Assembly (NCBI GenBank): GCA_046350755.1
Contig: JAXLZV010000001.1
Coordinates: forward strand, 406,372-470,371
DNA: 64,000 nucleotides
From: Candidatus Saccharimonadota bacterium
GTDB taxonomy: Bacteria > Patescibacteriota > Saccharimonadia > CAILAD01 > GCA-016700035
Reading direction: 5' to 3'
Shown: positions 4,787 to 60,420 of the stretch, piece after piece
How positions within the stretch are numbered: position 1 is the stretch's first letter
How the letters are laid out: every line of letters starts with the position of its first letter
Made by a program: the position numbers and the translations under genes
Notes under the pieces: model-generated
The model's database searches: none
What the model was told of the DNA's origin: nothing
Seen by the model: the letters and a program-made list of their open reading frames with translations, nothing else

Positions 4787-4860
4787 GGGCCCATAGCTCA
4801 GTTGGTTAGAGCGACAGCCTTTTAAGCTGTGCGTCCTGGGTTCGAATCCCAGTGGGCCCT
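4787..4860 (+). tRNA. tRNA-Lys (anticodon UUU)
   Basis: Cloverleaf GGGCCCA/UGGGCCC acceptor, anticodon stem ACAGC/GCUGU, loop CUUUUAA, T-loop GGTTCGAATCC, encoded CCA at 4861-4863. Confidence 0.9.
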
Positions 4861-5016
4861 CCATCGAAACAGTCGATCCTCGCGGTCGGCTTTTTCGATG
4901 GAGTAAACTCAGCTCGCCTAGCGATCAACTGATAGGCCGCCTTTCACGAACGAGATTGACAGTGCTTACGGCTCAGACTATCATCCGCTTAGTACCTTTA
5001 CGAAAGATGAGGCGCC

Positions 5017-5247
5017 ATGAGCCTGCTGCTTGACTATGCACAGATCCCCGGCCTTCGCTGCGGGCTGTGTGGGGGAGATGAATTCCGTATCAAAGCTTCG
5101 CCAGCAACCAACACGATAGTAGTGCACTGCCGCTGTGGTGGCCGCAAGCCAATGCCGCGCAACACCCAGATAATCCAGGCTGTACTCGAGCCGCTCGACC
5201 AACCCAAATCATGCCAAGCCCCAACTCAGCCACTCCAGCCTTCATAA
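5017..5247 (+). CDS. small zinc-ribbon-like protein (two CxxC/CxC pairs)
   Basis: GAGG RBS 5 nt upstream of ATG; CGLCGG...HCRCGG; no homology recognised. Confidence 0.3.
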   Translation: MSLLLDYAQIPGLRCGLCGGDEFRIKASPATNTIVVHCRCGGRKPMPRNTQIIQAVLEPLDQPKSCQAPTQPLQPS

Positions 5248-5336
5248 TGCACGTTTCCCCGCTTTCATCACCGAAGGCGGGTTTTTACGTAGAAAAATAC
5301 CCCGCAGCCAATGGCCGCGGGGCGCTAGTTTCATAG

Positions 5337-6656
5337 CTAGTGGAGGGCTGGGATGAGACCAGCTTGCGTCAGCACACGAACCTCTTCGTCGTCGGCCGGG
5401 TTGAACTTGCCAGCCGTGAAGTACTGCACGCGCTCTGGGTTACGCTCCATGAGCGCCCAGATATTCAGATTGCCAGCGGCGTAGATCAAATCTTTGCCGT
5501 AGTACACGCCGGGCGTCTGACAATCGGTGCCGCGAAAGACTCGATTGGTACGAATCCAGGCTCGCTCCTCAGGCGTCTCCAGCGATCGATCAGCCGGCAT
5601 CCTCTCCTCATCGATGAGCCGGTAGTATATCACCATGCACTCATAAATGGTTCGAAAATCACGTGGTCGACCGTCGATCAAACCGGCCGCCAAACTGGTC
5701 GCCAAGTAGGCTTCTTCACCACGGTGAAAACGAGCCTCGCCCGTGACGGCTTGCTCGGTTACCGTCGTGACACCCTCCTCGGCCCAGCGATTGCTGGCTG
5801 TGCCACTCGAGCTCAAAAGGAAATAACCGGTCTGCTCTCCCCGGTATCGCCGCTCCGCATGCAGGCGCTCATGCACCAGCGAGCTAAGAGCGGTTTTTGC
5901 CGGAACGACACGATCAGCCGGGATGAAGATGCGGCGCTTGATGCCACTCATCGACATCCGTGCCTGCTTCGTGGTAATCTCTGGCGCCCATCCTTCCAGC
6001 CCGGCGGACTTAAAGGAGCGCTCAAGTAGCCACGCGAAGTACTGTGCGTCCCAGTAGCCCTTCGTGCGAACGCGGGTCGGGATCTTCATCTGGTCTTTCA
6101 GTGCCAGCAGCGCGTCTCGCGAGCGCTCGATGAGATGATGCGAGGGCAGCATTGATGTGCCGTCGTGTTCGGGGAGGATCTCCAGCAGCAGCTCGGTCGA
6201 ACCATACGGATCGGCTTGCAGTCGACGGTACAGGCTCGTCAAGATGCTCTGGAAGATATCCTCGCTGGGCTCGAAGCGCAGGTCGCGATTAGCAGCAGCA
6301 AAGGCTGTCATGTCACGACTCTGAGCGGCTCGAGCCAGACGTAGCAAGGCACGGCGCCGTTCCAGCGACTCGCCGAATAGCCGGCTTAACGGTGAAGTAT
6401 CCAGCTCCTCAACTAACTGAGAATCTGTTTCGATCGCCCGCTCGAGGCGATCAAGCACCGGGCCCAGCCGCTTGCCCTTCAGGGCTTGGTAGGTATACCT
6501 CGGATTACGTACTTCACCAGCCATGAACTGGCGCTTTTGTTCGGCAGCTTCTGCCGGATCAGGACGGAACAACTTGATGGTGTCGATCGCAGCAGCCTCG
6601 GAGACCGCGGCGAATACTTGGTCTTTCCAAGCAGTGGCCATGACGGCCCCTCTCAC
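5337..6656 (-). CDS. HExxH-motif putative zinc metallopeptidase, RimK-associated (DUF1704/MATCAP-like by context)
   Basis: LVHERLHAERRY HExxH motif; 439 aa; immediately downstream of rimK on the same strand. Confidence 0.6.
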   Translation of the reverse strand: MRGAVMATAWKDQVFAAVSEAAAIDTIKLFRPDPAEAAEQKRQFMAGEVRNPRYTYQALKGKRLGPVLDRLERAIETDSQLVEELDTSPLSRLFGESLERRRALLRLARAAQSRDMTAFAAANRDLRFEPSEDIFQSILTSLYRRLQADPYGSTELLLEILPEHDGTSMLPSHHLIERSRDALLALKDQMKIPTRVRTKGYWDAQYFAWLLERSFKSAGLEGWAPEITTKQARMSMSGIKRRIFIPADRVVPAKTALSSLVHERLHAERRYRGEQTGYFLLSSSGTASNRWAEEGVTTVTEQAVTGEARFHRGEEAYLATSLAAGLIDGRPRDFRTIYECMVIYYRLIDEERMPADRSLETPEERAWIRTNRVFRGTDCQTPGVYYGKDLIYAAGNLNIWALMERNPERVQYFTAGKFNPADDEEVRVLTQAGLIPALH

Positions 6657-6712
6657 TAGTAGGTACGAAAACGCTATTTTACTATTTTTTTAGATAATAG
6701 TCAATATAAAAA

Positions 6713-7618
6713 CTAGGCGCCGATCTTGTCTCGACGGCGTTTGCCCTGTGCACGCTCAACGACAAAATCAATCATCTTGCCAGCAATATCTTCCTTAGTC
6801 TGCTTTTCGATACCCTCGAGTCCCGGCGAACTATTGACCTCGAGCACCAATGGCCCACGCTTCGAACGAATCAGATCAACCCCAGCGATCGACAGACCGA
6901 GTGTCGAGGCCGCCTTGAGAGCCATGTTCTGCTCTTTCTTTGACAGTTCAACGGGCACTGATTCCCCGCCGCGATGTAGGTTTGAGCGAAATTCACCCTC
7001 TTGCCCTTTACGCATCATCGCGCCAACAATCTTGTCGCCAACTACGATAACACGGATATCAGCCCCATCAGCCTCTTCTATAAACTCCTGCAGAATAACT
7101 GAGGCATTGATTGAATTAAAAGCTTCAATGACCGACTTAGCGGCTTTCTTAGTTTCGGCCAGCACTACGCCCTTGCCCTGCGTACTTTCGAGCAACTTTA
7201 CAATCACTGGAGCGCCGCCAACGAGTTCGAGTGTTTCGGCAGCCTCGGCGGTCTGTGAAGCAAAGACCGTCTTTGGGATGCCAACGCCAGCTCGAGCCAA
7301 CAGCTGCATCGAACGCAGCTTGTCACGCGACCGCACTAGGGCTAAGGAACTGGTGGCAGTGTAAGCTCGCATCATTTCAAACTGACGCAAAACCGCCGCA
7401 CCGTAGAGGGTGTAACGTGCGGCAATCCGCGGAATCACCGCCTGCACATCATCGACCGAGCGACCTTCCCAGTGTACTGATGGGTTGCGACTCTCGATCG
7501 CCATGTAGGCCTTCGTGTAGTCAACTACGACTGGTGCGTGCCCACGCTGTTTGGCAGCTTCGACCAAGCGCTGCGTGGAGTAGTTTTTGCGACCGGCTGA
7601 GAGAATGACTATTTTCAT
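6713..7618 (-). CDS. rimK: ribosomal protein S6 glutamate ligase-type ATP-grasp enzyme
   Basis: Full-length RimK-like ATP-grasp (MKIVILSAGRKNYSTQRL...EVNSSPGLEGIE). Confidence 0.9.
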   Translation of the reverse strand: MKIVILSAGRKNYSTQRLVEAAKQRGHAPVVVDYTKAYMAIESRNPSVHWEGRSVDDVQAVIPRIAARYTLYGAAVLRQFEMMRAYTATSSLALVRSRDKLRSMQLLARAGVGIPKTVFASQTAEAAETLELVGGAPVIVKLLESTQGKGVVLAETKKAAKSVIEAFNSINASVILQEFIEEADGADIRVIVVGDKIVGAMMRKGQEGEFRSNLHRGGESVPVELSKKEQNMALKAASTLGLSIAGVDLIRSKRGPLVLEVNSSPGLEGIEKQTKEDIAGKMIDFVVERAQGKRRRDKIGA

Positions 7619-7641
7619 ACTAGTATCTTACCTTATTTGAG

Positions 7642-8061
7642 TTAGTTAGCGACGTCAACAACAAAGCGATGACGCAAGAAGCGTCGGCCCAACAGGATCG
7701 GTGCTCGCATCTGGCTACGATCAGCAAGCGTGAATTCGGCTTCAAATATTTCGTCAGATTCGGCTACCCGCACTCGAGTCTTGATGACATAGCGAGTTTG
7801 CGATACACCAAAAGAATTGATCACGCGTGTCTTCGAAAAATCCTTCAGTGTAATCAGTTTAGCGGTATATTGTGCATGATCAGGATCTAATACATGGAAA
7901 GACAGATACTTTTTCTTGCCGACCGTGATCACCTCGACATTACTGCAATGCAGTGCGTTTTTGTAGGCGCCAGTATCGACTTTCGAGACAACATCAGTCA
8001 AGCCAAAATCAATCAAGTCAATGGTAGTTTTACGGCCCAGGATAGCTTTCTTATGGATCAT
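7642..8061 (-). CDS. RimK-associated retropepsin-like aspartic protease (RimB/COG4067-like)
   Basis: Aspartic protease motif VDTGA; start taken at MIHKK with GAGAGG RBS (the ORF-track start at 8163 would overlap murF by 60 nt). Confidence 0.7.
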   Translation of the reverse strand: MIHKKAILGRKTTIDLIDFGLTDVVSKVDTGAYKNALHCSNVEVITVGKKKYLSFHVLDPDHAQYTAKLITLKDFSKTRVINSFGVSQTRYVIKTRVRVAESDEIFEAEFTLADRSQMRAPILLGRRFLRHRFVVDVAN

Positions 8062-8102
8062 CGGCAAACCTCTCGTGATCAGTGTATCATTTTGCGCCGG
8101 CT

Positions 8103-9440
8103 TCACGAGGAAATCTCCTGCTGTATGGTCTCGGCGAAAAAGCCTTGCTTGCGGCGCTTCCATGAGCCATTTTGACGGATCAATATTTTATCAGCTTCGT
8201 TCGGTTGGTCCATGACGTATTTTATGGCTTCCTCGGTAAAAACACCATCTTGTGAGCCCTTAAAGAGAATGGTAGCGCCTGGCTCTACGATTGCTCGCAA
8301 GCAGGCACCCGCCTGATTCGCCCGTGCAAAGACATGTACGTGCTGTGCATCAAGACCAGCTCGAATCGCAGCCGGTGCCAGATATTTGCCCGCGGTGTCG
8401 CCAATCACCACCAGCTCATCAACCACCTCAGCCGCACGCTGACCAATCTTTTCATGGGCTGCCTGCGTAGTATCACTCAGTTCATTCATGCTGCCGAGAA
8501 CGGCGATTTTTTTCCCAGTATAGCCATTGAGCGTCTTGAGGGCTGCCAACACTGAAATTGGTGAGGCGTTAAAGGTATCATCCAAAAGCACGGTGCCCTG
8601 GCGCCCAACAACTGGATTCATCCGTCCGCGGACTGGCTCAATCATCGGTACCGCCGCTGCAATCTCGTCCAGGCTCCATCCCAGCTTATGCGCAACTGCG
8701 GCTGCTGCTGCGACCGCATAGAGCGCCTGGGTAGCCACCATATTCGTCTGAATCTTAGCCGATTTTTTATCGATGACCAAGTTGCCCGCCAACTTACCAT
8801 CTGGCTGCGTGGTAATATTACGAATCGATACCACACCATGCTGAATGCCATACGTCTTAGCTTGTGCAGCGTTCGTCTGCTTGGCGAGGTCAGGAAAATC
8901 GGCGTTATAGATTATCTGCTGACACATACTTGCCAGCTTCCAGACGGCGGCCACCAACCGGTCATAGCTGTGAAAATAACTCAAATGAGCTGGTGATACG
9001 CCAGAAATTACGCCAATATCTGGCTGCAGCTCCTTGATATAGGCGCCTAATGAGGCGTGGCGGCTCTCGGCCATTTCGAGCACCACCACATCAAACGGGA
9101 AATCCTTGGTACGGCGATGCACCGACCAGAGAACGGGCACCCAACGCACCAGCCAGCGATTATACTTCGGAAATGGTAGTCCAAAAAAGTTCAGCCGAAT
9201 TGTCCGATCAGAATTATGATTTTGATCTTCTATGTAGAGCCGATAGCGGGTCGCCAGCAGCTGGGCGATAGCAACTTTGGCTGATGTCTTACCAATCGAA
9301 CCGGTGACGGCGATAATTTTTGGCCGATGCCGAGCCAGCACCTGACGCATAGAGCGATCCAATAGCTGTGAGATCAGATTGATCTTGGCGCGACGATAGC
9401 GAAATAATAGGTTGCGCTTCGGCATAACCACCTCCAACAA
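8103..9440 (-). CDS. murF: UDP-N-acetylmuramoyl-tripeptide--D-alanyl-D-alanine ligase (Mur ligase family)
   Basis: P-loop IIAVTGSIGKTS; C-terminal LLDDTFNASP...VLGSMNELS...KGSQDG matches MurF; N-terminal domain short. Confidence 0.75.
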   Translation of the reverse strand: MLEVVMPKRNLLFRYRRAKINLISQLLDRSMRQVLARHRPKIIAVTGSIGKTSAKVAIAQLLATRYRLYIEDQNHNSDRTIRLNFFGLPFPKYNRWLVRWVPVLWSVHRRTKDFPFDVVVLEMAESRHASLGAYIKELQPDIGVISGVSPAHLSYFHSYDRLVAAVWKLASMCQQIIYNADFPDLAKQTNAAQAKTYGIQHGVVSIRNITTQPDGKLAGNLVIDKKSAKIQTNMVATQALYAVAAAAAVAHKLGWSLDEIAAAVPMIEPVRGRMNPVVGRQGTVLLDDTFNASPISVLAALKTLNGYTGKKIAVLGSMNELSDTTQAAHEKIGQRAAEVVDELVVIGDTAGKYLAPAAIRAGLDAQHVHVFARANQAGACLRAIVEPGATILFKGSQDGVFTEEAIKYVMDQPNEADKILIRQNGSWKRRKQGFFAETIQQEISS

Positions 9441-58603: not shown

Positions 58604-59071
58604 TTACTTATTTTCGCAACCAAAGCAGTCCATTAGTCGATTGAGCGATCGACTAATCTCAGCTTTCTCACGAGCTGAGAGCTGAGAGTATTTTTCGGTA
58701 AAGAATGCATTGAGCGAAGTCTCTGCATCTCGAAAAGCCGTGCGGCCAGCTGGTGTTATCGCAACGTAACCGTAGCGGCGATCTGATTCATGAGGCAAGC
58801 GCTGCAAATAGCCACGCTTCATGAGCACCGCTACATGGCGCGAAATCGCGGCCGGCGTGACGCTCAGCGCATCAGCCAACTCGCGCTGACATGCCCGCTG
58901 TTCAGTCATCTGCATCAACAGAAAAAACTGCGACAATGTCAGGCTATGCTTGTCTTGCAAGACTCGCTCGCCGAGCTTGTCCATCATGTAGGTCACTCGA
59001 TGCAAATGAACAGCCGTGGCATGAGCAAAATCCTTTGTGGTCGGTGCCGCTTCGTGAATCGCCGGCTTCAT
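58604..59071 (-). CDS. MarR family transcriptional regulator
   Basis: wHTH LSVTPAAISRHVAVLMKRGYLQRLPHESDRRY. Confidence 0.85.
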   Translation of the reverse strand: MKPAIHEAAPTTKDFAHATAVHLHRVTYMMDKLGERVLQDKHSLTLSQFFLLMQMTEQRACQRELADALSVTPAAISRHVAVLMKRGYLQRLPHESDRRYGYVAITPAGRTAFRDAETSLNAFFTEKYSQLSAREKAEISRSLNRLMDCFGCENK

Positions 59072-60420
59072 CGCTTCACCAAACTAAACTGCTCATAGTG
59101 GATCAGCTCACGAGCGACGCCAGCGTCGACTAATTGGCTTCGCAGCGCGGTCATCAGCGACGGCGGTCCGCAAATATAGAAATCAGTCTGCTCCAGCGTA
59201 CCCACTTCGTGCTGCAAGATTTCAGCTGTCAGCAATTCCTGTGTCATGCCCCTCCCCTTTGCTTCACCCTCAGTAATGACATAACGAAGTTTCAACTTCA
59301 CATCTTTAGTCAGCGACTCAATCTCCCGCTTGAGCGCCAAATCGTCGACGCTGCGGGCAGTATAAAACAGCCACAACTCACGCTTATCGCCGGACTGCGC
59401 CAACTCACCCAACATAGCTCTGATCGGTGTAATACCGATGCCACCGGCCACGAATACCAGCCGCGGCTGGGAGGCTAACTCAGATGTAAAACGACCGTAT
59501 GGCCCATCGACAACGACTGGTGTTTCGATCGGAATGCGGTCGAGCTTAGCCGTAAAATCGCCAACGATCTTATAGGTGATCCGAAGCTCTTGGCCATTTG
59601 GCTCGACCGAAAAACTAAACGGATGTTCTTCAAGCCAGTAGCCTTTGGCAACAAACCAGTACTTCGCGAATTGACCAGCTTCGTAACGAAAATTTTGAAG
59701 GTTTTGGCCGCGTAGATAGATACTCGATACCCCTTTGGTTTCGTGATCGACACGAGCCACCCGAAACTTATGCTTATTCCATTTCCAGAAAGGCAGAAAG
59801 AAACGGTAGTACAAGACACTCGCCGCAGTAATCACATAAAGGCCCATCCAGTAGGCCTTAAACCACGGCAAAGCCAAAATTTCTTTACCGTTGGATAACT
59901 GATGACCAACTGCCAACAAGATAATGAGATAGGTTGCAAGGTGGACATAATACCACCATTCATACTTGAGTCGACGACGAGCGATCACCAGCGAACTACC
60001 AGCCACAATAAACAGTAAGATTTCAGCAATAAGTGCCTTGGTAATATCTTCGAAGTTCCCCATGAGAATGGGCAGTACCTGGGGAATTTGAACATTATAT
60101 ACTGGCGCATAAGCTAGCAGAATCGTCGGCACATGGACGAGCACCAAGAGGACGGCGGCAAAGCCATTCCACCGGTGAATGCGAGTCAGCTTATCCAGGC
60201 CAAAATCAGCCTCCAGCCACTTACCACGACCGATCAGCCACAGTTGCACGAGCAAAGTGTAGCCGGCGAGTAAAGCAGCCAATCGCGAGAATCCCAGCAT
60301 CAGCGCAGTATAGCCAGTCGACATCAACGGCAAACTGACAGCCGACCAAACAGCGAATATAATGACCAGATTGATTCCCCAGAGCAAAATCCAACGCCAT
60401 TGTCGCCATGTATATTTCAT
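59068..60420 (-). CDS. ferric reductase-like transmembrane protein with FAD/NAD(P)-binding domain
   Basis: 6 TM with conserved His residues, HPFS FAD motif, C-terminal GGIGITP NAD-binding motif. Confidence 0.75.
   Translation of the reverse strand: MKYTWRQWRWILLWGINLVIIFAVWSAVSLPLMSTGYTALMLGFSRLAALLAGYTLLVQLWLIGRGKWLEADFGLDKLTRIHRWNGFAAVLLVLVHVPTILLAYAPVYNVQIPQVLPILMGNFEDITKALIAEILLFIVAGSSLVIARRRLKYEWWYYVHLATYLIILLAVGHQLSNGKEILALPWFKAYWMGLYVITAASVLYYRFFLPFWKWNKHKFRVARVDHETKGVSSIYLRGQNLQNFRYEAGQFAKYWFVAKGYWLEEHPFSFSVEPNGQELRITYKIVGDFTAKLDRIPIETPVVVDGPYGRFTSELASQPRLVFVAGGIGITPIRAMLGELAQSGDKRELWLFYTARSVDDLALKREIESLTKDVKLKLRYVITEGEAKGRGMTQELLTAEILQHEVGTLEQTDFYICGPPSLMTALRSQLVDAGVARELIHYEQFSLVKR

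Follow-up and report, generated by a model that had tools for sequence, protein, structure and literature searches.

What might a relative of the eukaryotic carboxypeptidase MATCAP be doing beside the genes of a RimB/RimK system in a bacterium? The question is raised by a four-gene cluster in a 64,000-nt stretch of a Candidatus Saccharibacteria metagenome-assembled genome (contig JAXLZV010000001.1, positions 406,372 to 470,371), which was analysed as a whole and is called the window hereafter. Few bacterial systems retune the ribosome after translation; RimK/RimB is one of them, and MATCAP/TMCP proteins were recognised as tubulin-code erasers only in 2022-2023. The cluster was found to encode RimK, a RimB-like protease and a divergent MATCAP-like protein with intact catalytic motifs, and MATCAP-like genes recurred beside RimK/RimB genes across the wider family. 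With a probability of roughly 50%, we read the cluster as an extended RimBK tail-modification operon of Candidatus Saccharibacteria, in which the MATCAP-like carboxypeptidase would serve as a second eraser.

An earlier note on this DNA had reported three co-directional genes, encoding a DTG aspartic protease, RimK and an HExxH protein, in a reduced-genome organism. The source organism fits that description, its longest contig measuring 643,864 nt, and all three genes were present on the minus strand at the coordinates it gave, together with a MurF-like ligase gene in the same direction. The features of the cluster are as follows:

8103-9425, minus strand: MurF-like Mur ligase, 440 aa (the longest open reading frame, ORF, reaches 9440; public gene calls give 440 aa)
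7642-8106, minus strand: RimB-like retropepsin-type aspartic endopeptidase, 154 aa, GTG start at 8106
6713-7618, minus strand: RimK, ATP-grasp alpha-L-glutamate ligase, 301 aa
6676-6704, minus strand: promoter-like site, TTGACT-17-TAAAAT, a consensus match only (10/12), inside the gap between rimK and the MATCAP-like gene
5337-6641, minus strand: MATCAP/DUF1704-family gluzincin, predicted carboxypeptidase, 434 aa, ATG start at 6641
5299-5323, minus strand: intrinsic-terminator-like hairpin, 11-bp stem with 9 GC pairs, followed by ATTTTTCT (T-run)

Family assignment and catalytic motifs

The 434-aa protein matched Pfam PF08014 with 30.4 bits, just above the gathering score of 27, and the match was confined to its C-terminal 76 residues. 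The same domain was precomputed on 6 of 7 close homologues, and mainstream relatives scored 77-86 bits. As this family, formerly DUF1704, is now named 'MATCAP' in Pfam and includes the window protein, the earlier note was right that DUF1704 proteins are bacterial relatives of MATCAP. Its proposed assignment to DUF1704 or TIGR02421 (QEGLA) held for the former, which was above threshold, but failed for the latter: the TIGR02421 score was 27.3 bits against a cut-off of 338.65, so membership was rejected and the protein was placed on a separate, divergent branch of the superfamily. An exhaustive hidden Markov model search retrieved at least 1,430 cluster representatives (50% identity) at E <= 1e-3, with 271 at E <= 1e-30, and most of these family members were full-length (420-500 aa). 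The window clade itself is rare, with 7 clusters in 5.8 billion proteins (word search) and 2 GTDB species representatives.

In a family alignment of 118 sequences, H257, E258, H261 and Y387 were invariant, and E288, E289, G290, R264, R327, R367, R370, D384 and K412 were nearly so; the basic residues among these conserved positions would go well with an acidic substrate. H257, E258 and H261 form the HERLH zinc/catalytic motif (5859-5873), and the predicted third ligand lies in the EEG motif (E288/E289; 5772-5780), which stands at the start of a modelled helix (residues 284-300). The profile of these sequences matched human MATCAP (7z5g; E 7.6e-9), with the motifs HE(x)xxH, EEG(L/I)A, RG.TD and KD..Y aligned. 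It was the only profile to reach MATCAP, since PDB searches with the single sequence and with an 8-sequence profile returned nothing relevant. Counted on the profile alignment, H257, E258, H261 and E289 of the window protein correspond to H280, E281, H285 and E316 of MATCAP, and E288-E289-G290 to E315-E316-G317. The E281A substitution destroys TMCP1 activity (PMC10499314).

A chance occurrence of HExxH was rejected on the basis of its invariance and its alignment with the MATCAP catalytic motif, so the HERLH pointed out earlier is a genuine motif. The AlphaFold2 (AF2) model of the 434-aa protein (predicted local distance difference test, pLDDT, 95.7; predicted template modelling score, pTM, 0.93) has the MATCAP-type gluzincin fold. 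Taken together, the protein is apparently a real and active member of the MATCAP fold. It carries no signal peptide, and some of its relatives are named 'tyrosine/phenylalanine carboxypeptidase domain-containing protein' by NCBI. Two other full-length members, P0010 and P0011, from the clade nearest to the window clade plus P0008/P0009, have lost H, E, H and EEG and are likely MATCAP-like pseudoenzymes.

RimK was identified at the equivalog level, scoring 368 bits against NCBIfam NF007764 'S6--L-glutamate ligase' (cut-off 331), and its ATP-grasp and pre-ATP-grasp architecture is complete (Pfam RimK, E 6.5e-67; Rimk_N, E 3.8e-34). Residues 1-288 gave full-length PDB matches to the Pseudomonas (7qyr/7qys) and Escherichia coli (5zct/4iwx) enzymes at E 1e-95 to 1e-100, the best quoted being Pseudomonas 7qyr (E 6.5e-100), and identity to Pseudomonas RimK is about 60%; the ATP-grasp RimK named in the earlier note is thereby confirmed. 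Characterised RimK adds alpha-linked Glu at the C-terminal end of ribosomal protein S6 and also makes poly-alpha-Glu (PMC11957791).

The RimB-like protein belongs to Pfam PF05618 (E 3.6e-17, 63 bits vs 27). Its best model was NCBIfam NF052261 RimB (E 1.2e-17), ahead of RloA1-3, with 64 bits against an equivalog cut-off of 200, suggesting that it is RimB-like but divergent. The proposed DTG aspartic protease was upheld by this membership and by the motif VDTGA (7966-7980; catalytic DTGA at 7966-7977), in which D, T and G did not vary among 8 homologues. Near the C-terminus the same set conserves another retropepsin-type motif, ILLGRRFL, and the PF05618 protein 9g59 in the PDB was aligned through DTGAY and LLG (E 0.0024). 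When the profile was compared with HIV-1 protease by hhalign, only DTGA was aligned (probability 0.5%), and an AF2 model from the single sequence reached pLDDT 34. The retropepsin assignment is therefore based on PF05618 membership and the RimB/RloA literature. The N-terminus MKPAQNDTLITRGLPMIHKK contains no hydrophobic signal segment, as judged by direct inspection of the sequence with no signal-peptide predictor run, and the protein is predicted to be cytoplasmic. RimB is an endopeptidase that strips Glu from polyglutamylated S6 and needs about 5-6 contiguous Glu residues (PMC11957791).

Recurrent linkage and layout of the cluster

The neighbourhoods of the wider family were compared in 80 metagenome loci carrying its mainstream HExxxH members, which are 25-35% identical to the window protein; ORFs were called and their products clustered, over 88 loci in total, and densities were calculated from 66 dereplicated loci. 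RimK/RimB was by far the commonest neighbour cluster: it occurred in 38 of the 88 loci, including 6 from the window clade, and the next clusters were found in 9 each. Counted per 10 kb, it appeared 2.0 times within 1.5 kb of the MATCAP-like gene and 0.12-0.16 times at 3-6 kb, which makes these genes at least 12-fold denser beside the MATCAP-like gene than at that distance. Where at least 2.5 kb was available on both sides, 10 of 22 loci had a RimK/RimB neighbour within 2.5 kb. These neighbours were RimK-like ATP-grasp proteins or ATPgrasp_ST-retropepsin fusions, the latter often accompanied by a seven-transmembrane (7TM) inactive transglutaminase and a GT4 glycosyltransferase (Rlo-like). The RimK linkage of DUF1704 proteins, mentioned in the earlier note, is thus statistically real across the wider family; the association of MATCAP-like genes with RimK-family ligases exists at the family level and is not universal.

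True RimK (>50% identity) and stand-alone RimB were found beside MATCAP-like genes in three separated neighbour-joining branches with differing gene orders, namely the window clade, locus L049 and loci L015/L064. The order in L049 was DnaJ-MATCAP-membrane protein-MurF-like-RimB-RimK-ComEC-YebC, and in L015/L064 rimB-rimK was divergent from the MATCAP-like gene. The order murF-rimB-rimK-MATCAP was kept in every window-clade locus that was long enough, even where the MATCAP-like protein was only 42% identical. In addition, on a plasmid of Aminobacter, a very distant proteobacterial QEGLA protein is encoded beside an ATP-grasp ligase. Rlo-like parts, including a second RimK-like ATP-grasp, were also seen near mainstream MATCAP-like genes at L025:1688-5775, L035:2862-8932 and L065:7864-9132.

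In the window, the GTG start of rimB (MKPAQNDTLI...) shares four nucleotides, GTGA, with the TGA stop codon of the MurF-like gene. This is a classic translational-coupling arrangement, and the two genes are predicted to be translationally coupled. The intergenic gaps are 23 nt between rimB and rimK and 71 nt between rimK and the MATCAP-like gene, and the site at 6676-6704 within the latter might be an internal promoter of the MATCAP-like gene. The strong terminator-like hairpin follows 14 nt past the MATCAP-like stop codon and would mark the end of the transcription unit. A Shine-Dalgarno-like GAGAGGGG stretch precedes the ATG at 6641, most likely the true start, and the length of the metallopeptidase was accordingly corrected from the 439 aa of the earlier note to 434 aa; that of the RimB-like protein was corrected from 173 to 154 aa (GTG 8106). 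Both lengths agree with public gene calls and with the NCBI proteins. NCBI names the three products 'RimK/LysX family protein' (MFO0955357), 'S6--L-glutamate ligase' (MFO0955356) and 'DUF1704 domain-containing protein' (MFO0955355). GC content in the neighbourhood peaks in the MATCAP-like gene (0.589; 0.667 at third codon positions), compared with 0.46-0.54 for its neighbours, 0.46 for rimB and a window mean of 0.505, which may reflect either a different origin or an Ala/Arg-rich composition.

The MurF-like protein contains Mur_ligase_M and Mur_ligase_C domains and a P-loop, VTGSIGKTS, at about residue 45. Its match to the NCBIfam murF subfamily TIGR01143 (E 3.4e-56) was below the cut-off (191 vs 288.6 bits), and its best PDB match was P. 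aeruginosa MurF 4cvk (E 3.6e-25). The N-terminal MurF domain 1 is absent, query residue 38 being aligned to residue 98 of 3zm5. This short form was conserved in 5 homologues, stood upstream of rimB in L001, L003, L004 and L049, and adjoined the MATCAP-like gene in L049 and L052. The suggestion that this neighbour may be coincidental was not obviously right, given its coupling to rimB and an adjacency kept wherever the cluster was seen. The protein may be the housekeeping MurF or a component of the module.

Eraser, primer or envelope enzyme

In the extended RimBK operon that we favour, RimK would use ATP to add alpha-linked Glu to a protein C-terminus, by homology that of ribosomal protein S6. 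The RimB-like retropepsin, acting in the cytoplasm, would cut long Glu runs as an endopeptidase, and the MATCAP-like zinc gluzincin would remove C-terminal residues one at a time, both from short Glu tails beyond the reach of RimB and from the released oligo-Glu. Together, the writer and its two complementary erasers would then determine how long the tails are. The need of RimB for at least 5-6 contiguous Glu residues (PMC11957791) leaves room for an exopeptidase, and a carboxypeptidase is proposed because the characterised members of the MATCAP fold and the nearest structural relatives are carboxypeptidases. MATCAP-family enzymes cut the terminal Tyr and Glu off tubulin; polyglutamate chains are shortened by MATCAP1/TMCP1 and TMCP2 (KIAA0895L/KIAA0895) and by a Tetrahymena homologue (PMC10499314). 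Since TMCP1/2 remove polyglutamate in eukaryotes, an eraser role for the MATCAP-like protein would be biochemically reasonable. A scan of the window ORFs for acidic C-termini gave no nearby candidate substrate.

Several observations weigh against this reading. Erasure is already provided for by RimB on its own, and the system does not need a second eraser. With tblastn, neither the window nor the 88 loci yielded an S6 gene (rpsF), which would reveal whether S6 ends in Glu. The extended HExxxH motif is not present in the window clade, which has HERLH or HELLH owing to a one-residue deletion in the zinc helix, and a few other members share this HExxH form; among 155 family sequences, 138 had HExxxH (HE[IV]GTH, as in MATCAP) and 14 had HExxH. 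Because H, E and H are still invariant, the variant zinc site is probably functional. The 71-nt gap with its promoter-like site makes separate expression of the MATCAP-like gene possible. The Saccharibacteria region is syntenic throughout (GrpE-DnaK-NYN-DnaJ ... ComEC-YebC), which makes conservation within the clade, taken alone, weak evidence. An ATP-grasp neighbour was absent from about half of the family loci with good flanks. Finally, some MATCAP-like genes lie among cell-wall genes: in L029, a contig of the candidate phyla radiation (CPR), the gene (5953-7287) is inside a dcw cluster, mraY-ftsW-[MATCAP-like]-x-murG-ftsQ-ftsA-ftsZ, and in 9 loci (e.g., L050:7393-9627) a class A penicillin-binding protein (PBP; transglycosylase + transpeptidase) gene directly adjoins it, usually with a RimK-like ATP-grasp on its other side.

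The genomic linkage with RimK/RimB genes would fit a priming carboxypeptidase as well as an eraser. Such an enzyme would act before the writer, stripping one or a few non-Glu C-terminal residues and thereby exposing a Glu acceptor for RimK. MATCAP/TMCP1 is primarily a detyrosinase that exposes the C-terminal Glu of alpha-tubulin (PMC10499314), it has its fold and catalytic motifs in common with the window protein, and the NCBI label of some relatives names tyrosine and phenylalanine. The characterised RimK substrates, S6 of E. coli and Pseudomonas, nevertheless end in Glu as encoded by the gene (PMC11957791), and the MATCAP family also deglutamylates. We consider priming unlikely.

A function in the cell envelope appears improbable. 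Here the MATCAP-like protein, perhaps with the MurF-like protein and the ATP-grasp, would act on peptidoglycan stem peptides or on another envelope-linked peptide or polyglutamate rather than on the ribosome. The coupling and conserved adjacency of the MurF-like gene, the dcw cluster of L029 and the nine PBP loci are consistent with this; many family members also lie with Rlo-like parts, and Pseudomonas Rlo affects cell shape and osmotic tolerance (PMC12239564). However, the window ligase is an equivalog-level RimK rather than the RloC type, and neither the RimB-like nor the MATCAP-like protein has a signal peptide. Moreover, the MurF-like protein may be a housekeeping MurF in a syntenic block, and the PBP neighbours cluster in a handful of related branches of the tree, chiefly in a single clade.

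It is very unlikely that the MATCAP-like gene is a coincidental neighbour encoding a separately expressed housekeeping peptidase in a conserved Saccharibacteria block: the promoter-bearing gap, the region-wide synteny among relatives, the deviating GC content and the family loci without ATP-grasp neighbours would allow it, but the local enrichment of RimK/RimB genes across 66 highly divergent loci, the several gene orders and orientations and the same pairing in distant Proteobacteria argue against it. A defence-system reading was rejected, as none of the 7 proteins examined had a PADLOC hit.

Known systems, significance and other features of the window

The extended RimBK operon has several features in common with the Pseudomonas RimBK/RimABK systems, including rimB directly upstream of rimK, an equivalog-level RimK, the DTGA motif, the lack of a signal peptide and the logic of a writer with an endo-acting eraser; the writer/eraser pairing of RimK and RimB cited in the earlier note agrees with these reports (PMC11957791, PMC7343187). 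Unlike RimABK, the window cluster has no RimA (EAL) gene. It further differs from RimBK in the low score of its RimB-like protein (64 vs 200 bits), the MATCAP-family gene after rimK, the MurF-like gene coupled upstream and the CPR host.

TIGR02421 QEGLA proteins are of the same superfamily, with HE...H and (Q/E)EG(L/I/V)A motifs and an ATP-grasp neighbour (PMC10308900), but the window protein has 434 aa and another architecture, compared with 622 aa in Aminobacter, and its partner is a true RimK instead of a 'GshB-like' ATP-grasp. The RloABC system consists of a secreted retropepsin (RloA), a 7TM inactive transglutaminase (RloB) and an ATP-grasp (RloC), and has its protease and ligase families in common with the window; MATCAP-like genes of the wider family often stand beside RloC-like ATPgrasp_ST, retropepsin and 7TM_transglut genes. 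In contrast, no RloB-like gene is present in the window, where the ligase is RimK proper and the protease, unlike the secreted RloA (PMC12239564), lacks a signal peptide. The published Rlo study makes no mention of a MATCAP-like component (PMC12239564). Similarity of the window protein to M32 (Taq-type) metallocarboxypeptidases and DUF885 is much weaker, with no match at the sequence level.

In Photobacterium damselae at low salinity, a QEGLA gene was induced 27.5-fold, the adjacent 'GshB' ATP-grasp gene 38-fold (A0J47_RS17020/RS17025) and rimK (RS00405) 52-fold; these genes were among those most strongly induced (PMC10308900). The response resembles the hypo-osmotic phenotype of Rlo mutants and is a hint that glutamate-ligase/peptidase modules may have a role in osmotic stress.

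The recurrent RimK/retropepsin wiring provides a concrete function candidate for a large, functionally unassigned family comprising at least 1,430 clusters at 50% identity, and it points to a prokaryotic origin of the ligase/carboxypeptidase logic of tubulin tails, suggesting that the writer/eraser pairing is older than tubulin. The retention of the module in a streamlined genome suggests that it is important. In a broader reading, which we regard as speculative and improbable, MATCAP-family and RimK-family proteins would form an ancient coupled writer/eraser (or primer/writer) pair from which the TTL/TTLL-MATCAP/TMCP tubulin cycle descends or which it recapitulates; the window module might then comprise four genes, with the MurF-like protein lacking domain 1 adding a further residue to the same peptide. 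The family relationship is already hinted at by Pfam, TIGRFAM and NCBI annotations. In the literature searched, no paper joined MATCAP, KIAA0895 or DUF1704 with RimK or ATP-grasp, and DUF1704 appeared in one unrelated paper only.

Next to the cluster, a 76-aa ORF on the plus strand (5017-5247) is convergent to the MATCAP-like gene. It is zinc-ribbon-like (CxxC...CxC), is annotated as a gene in public contigs, had no Pfam or PADLOC hit, and is accompanied by a promoter-like site (4956-4984; 11/12) and its own terminator (5258-5281). The interval separating the cluster from comEC holds a tRNA-Lys(UUU) gene on the opposite strand (4787-4863, plus). About 50 kb away, a 450-aa protein (59068-60420, minus strand) resembles the reductase part of nitric oxide-inducible flavohemoprotein (E 6.5e-34, far below the cut-off), a curious coincidence with the NCBI name 'flavohemoglobin expression-modulating QEGLA protein'.

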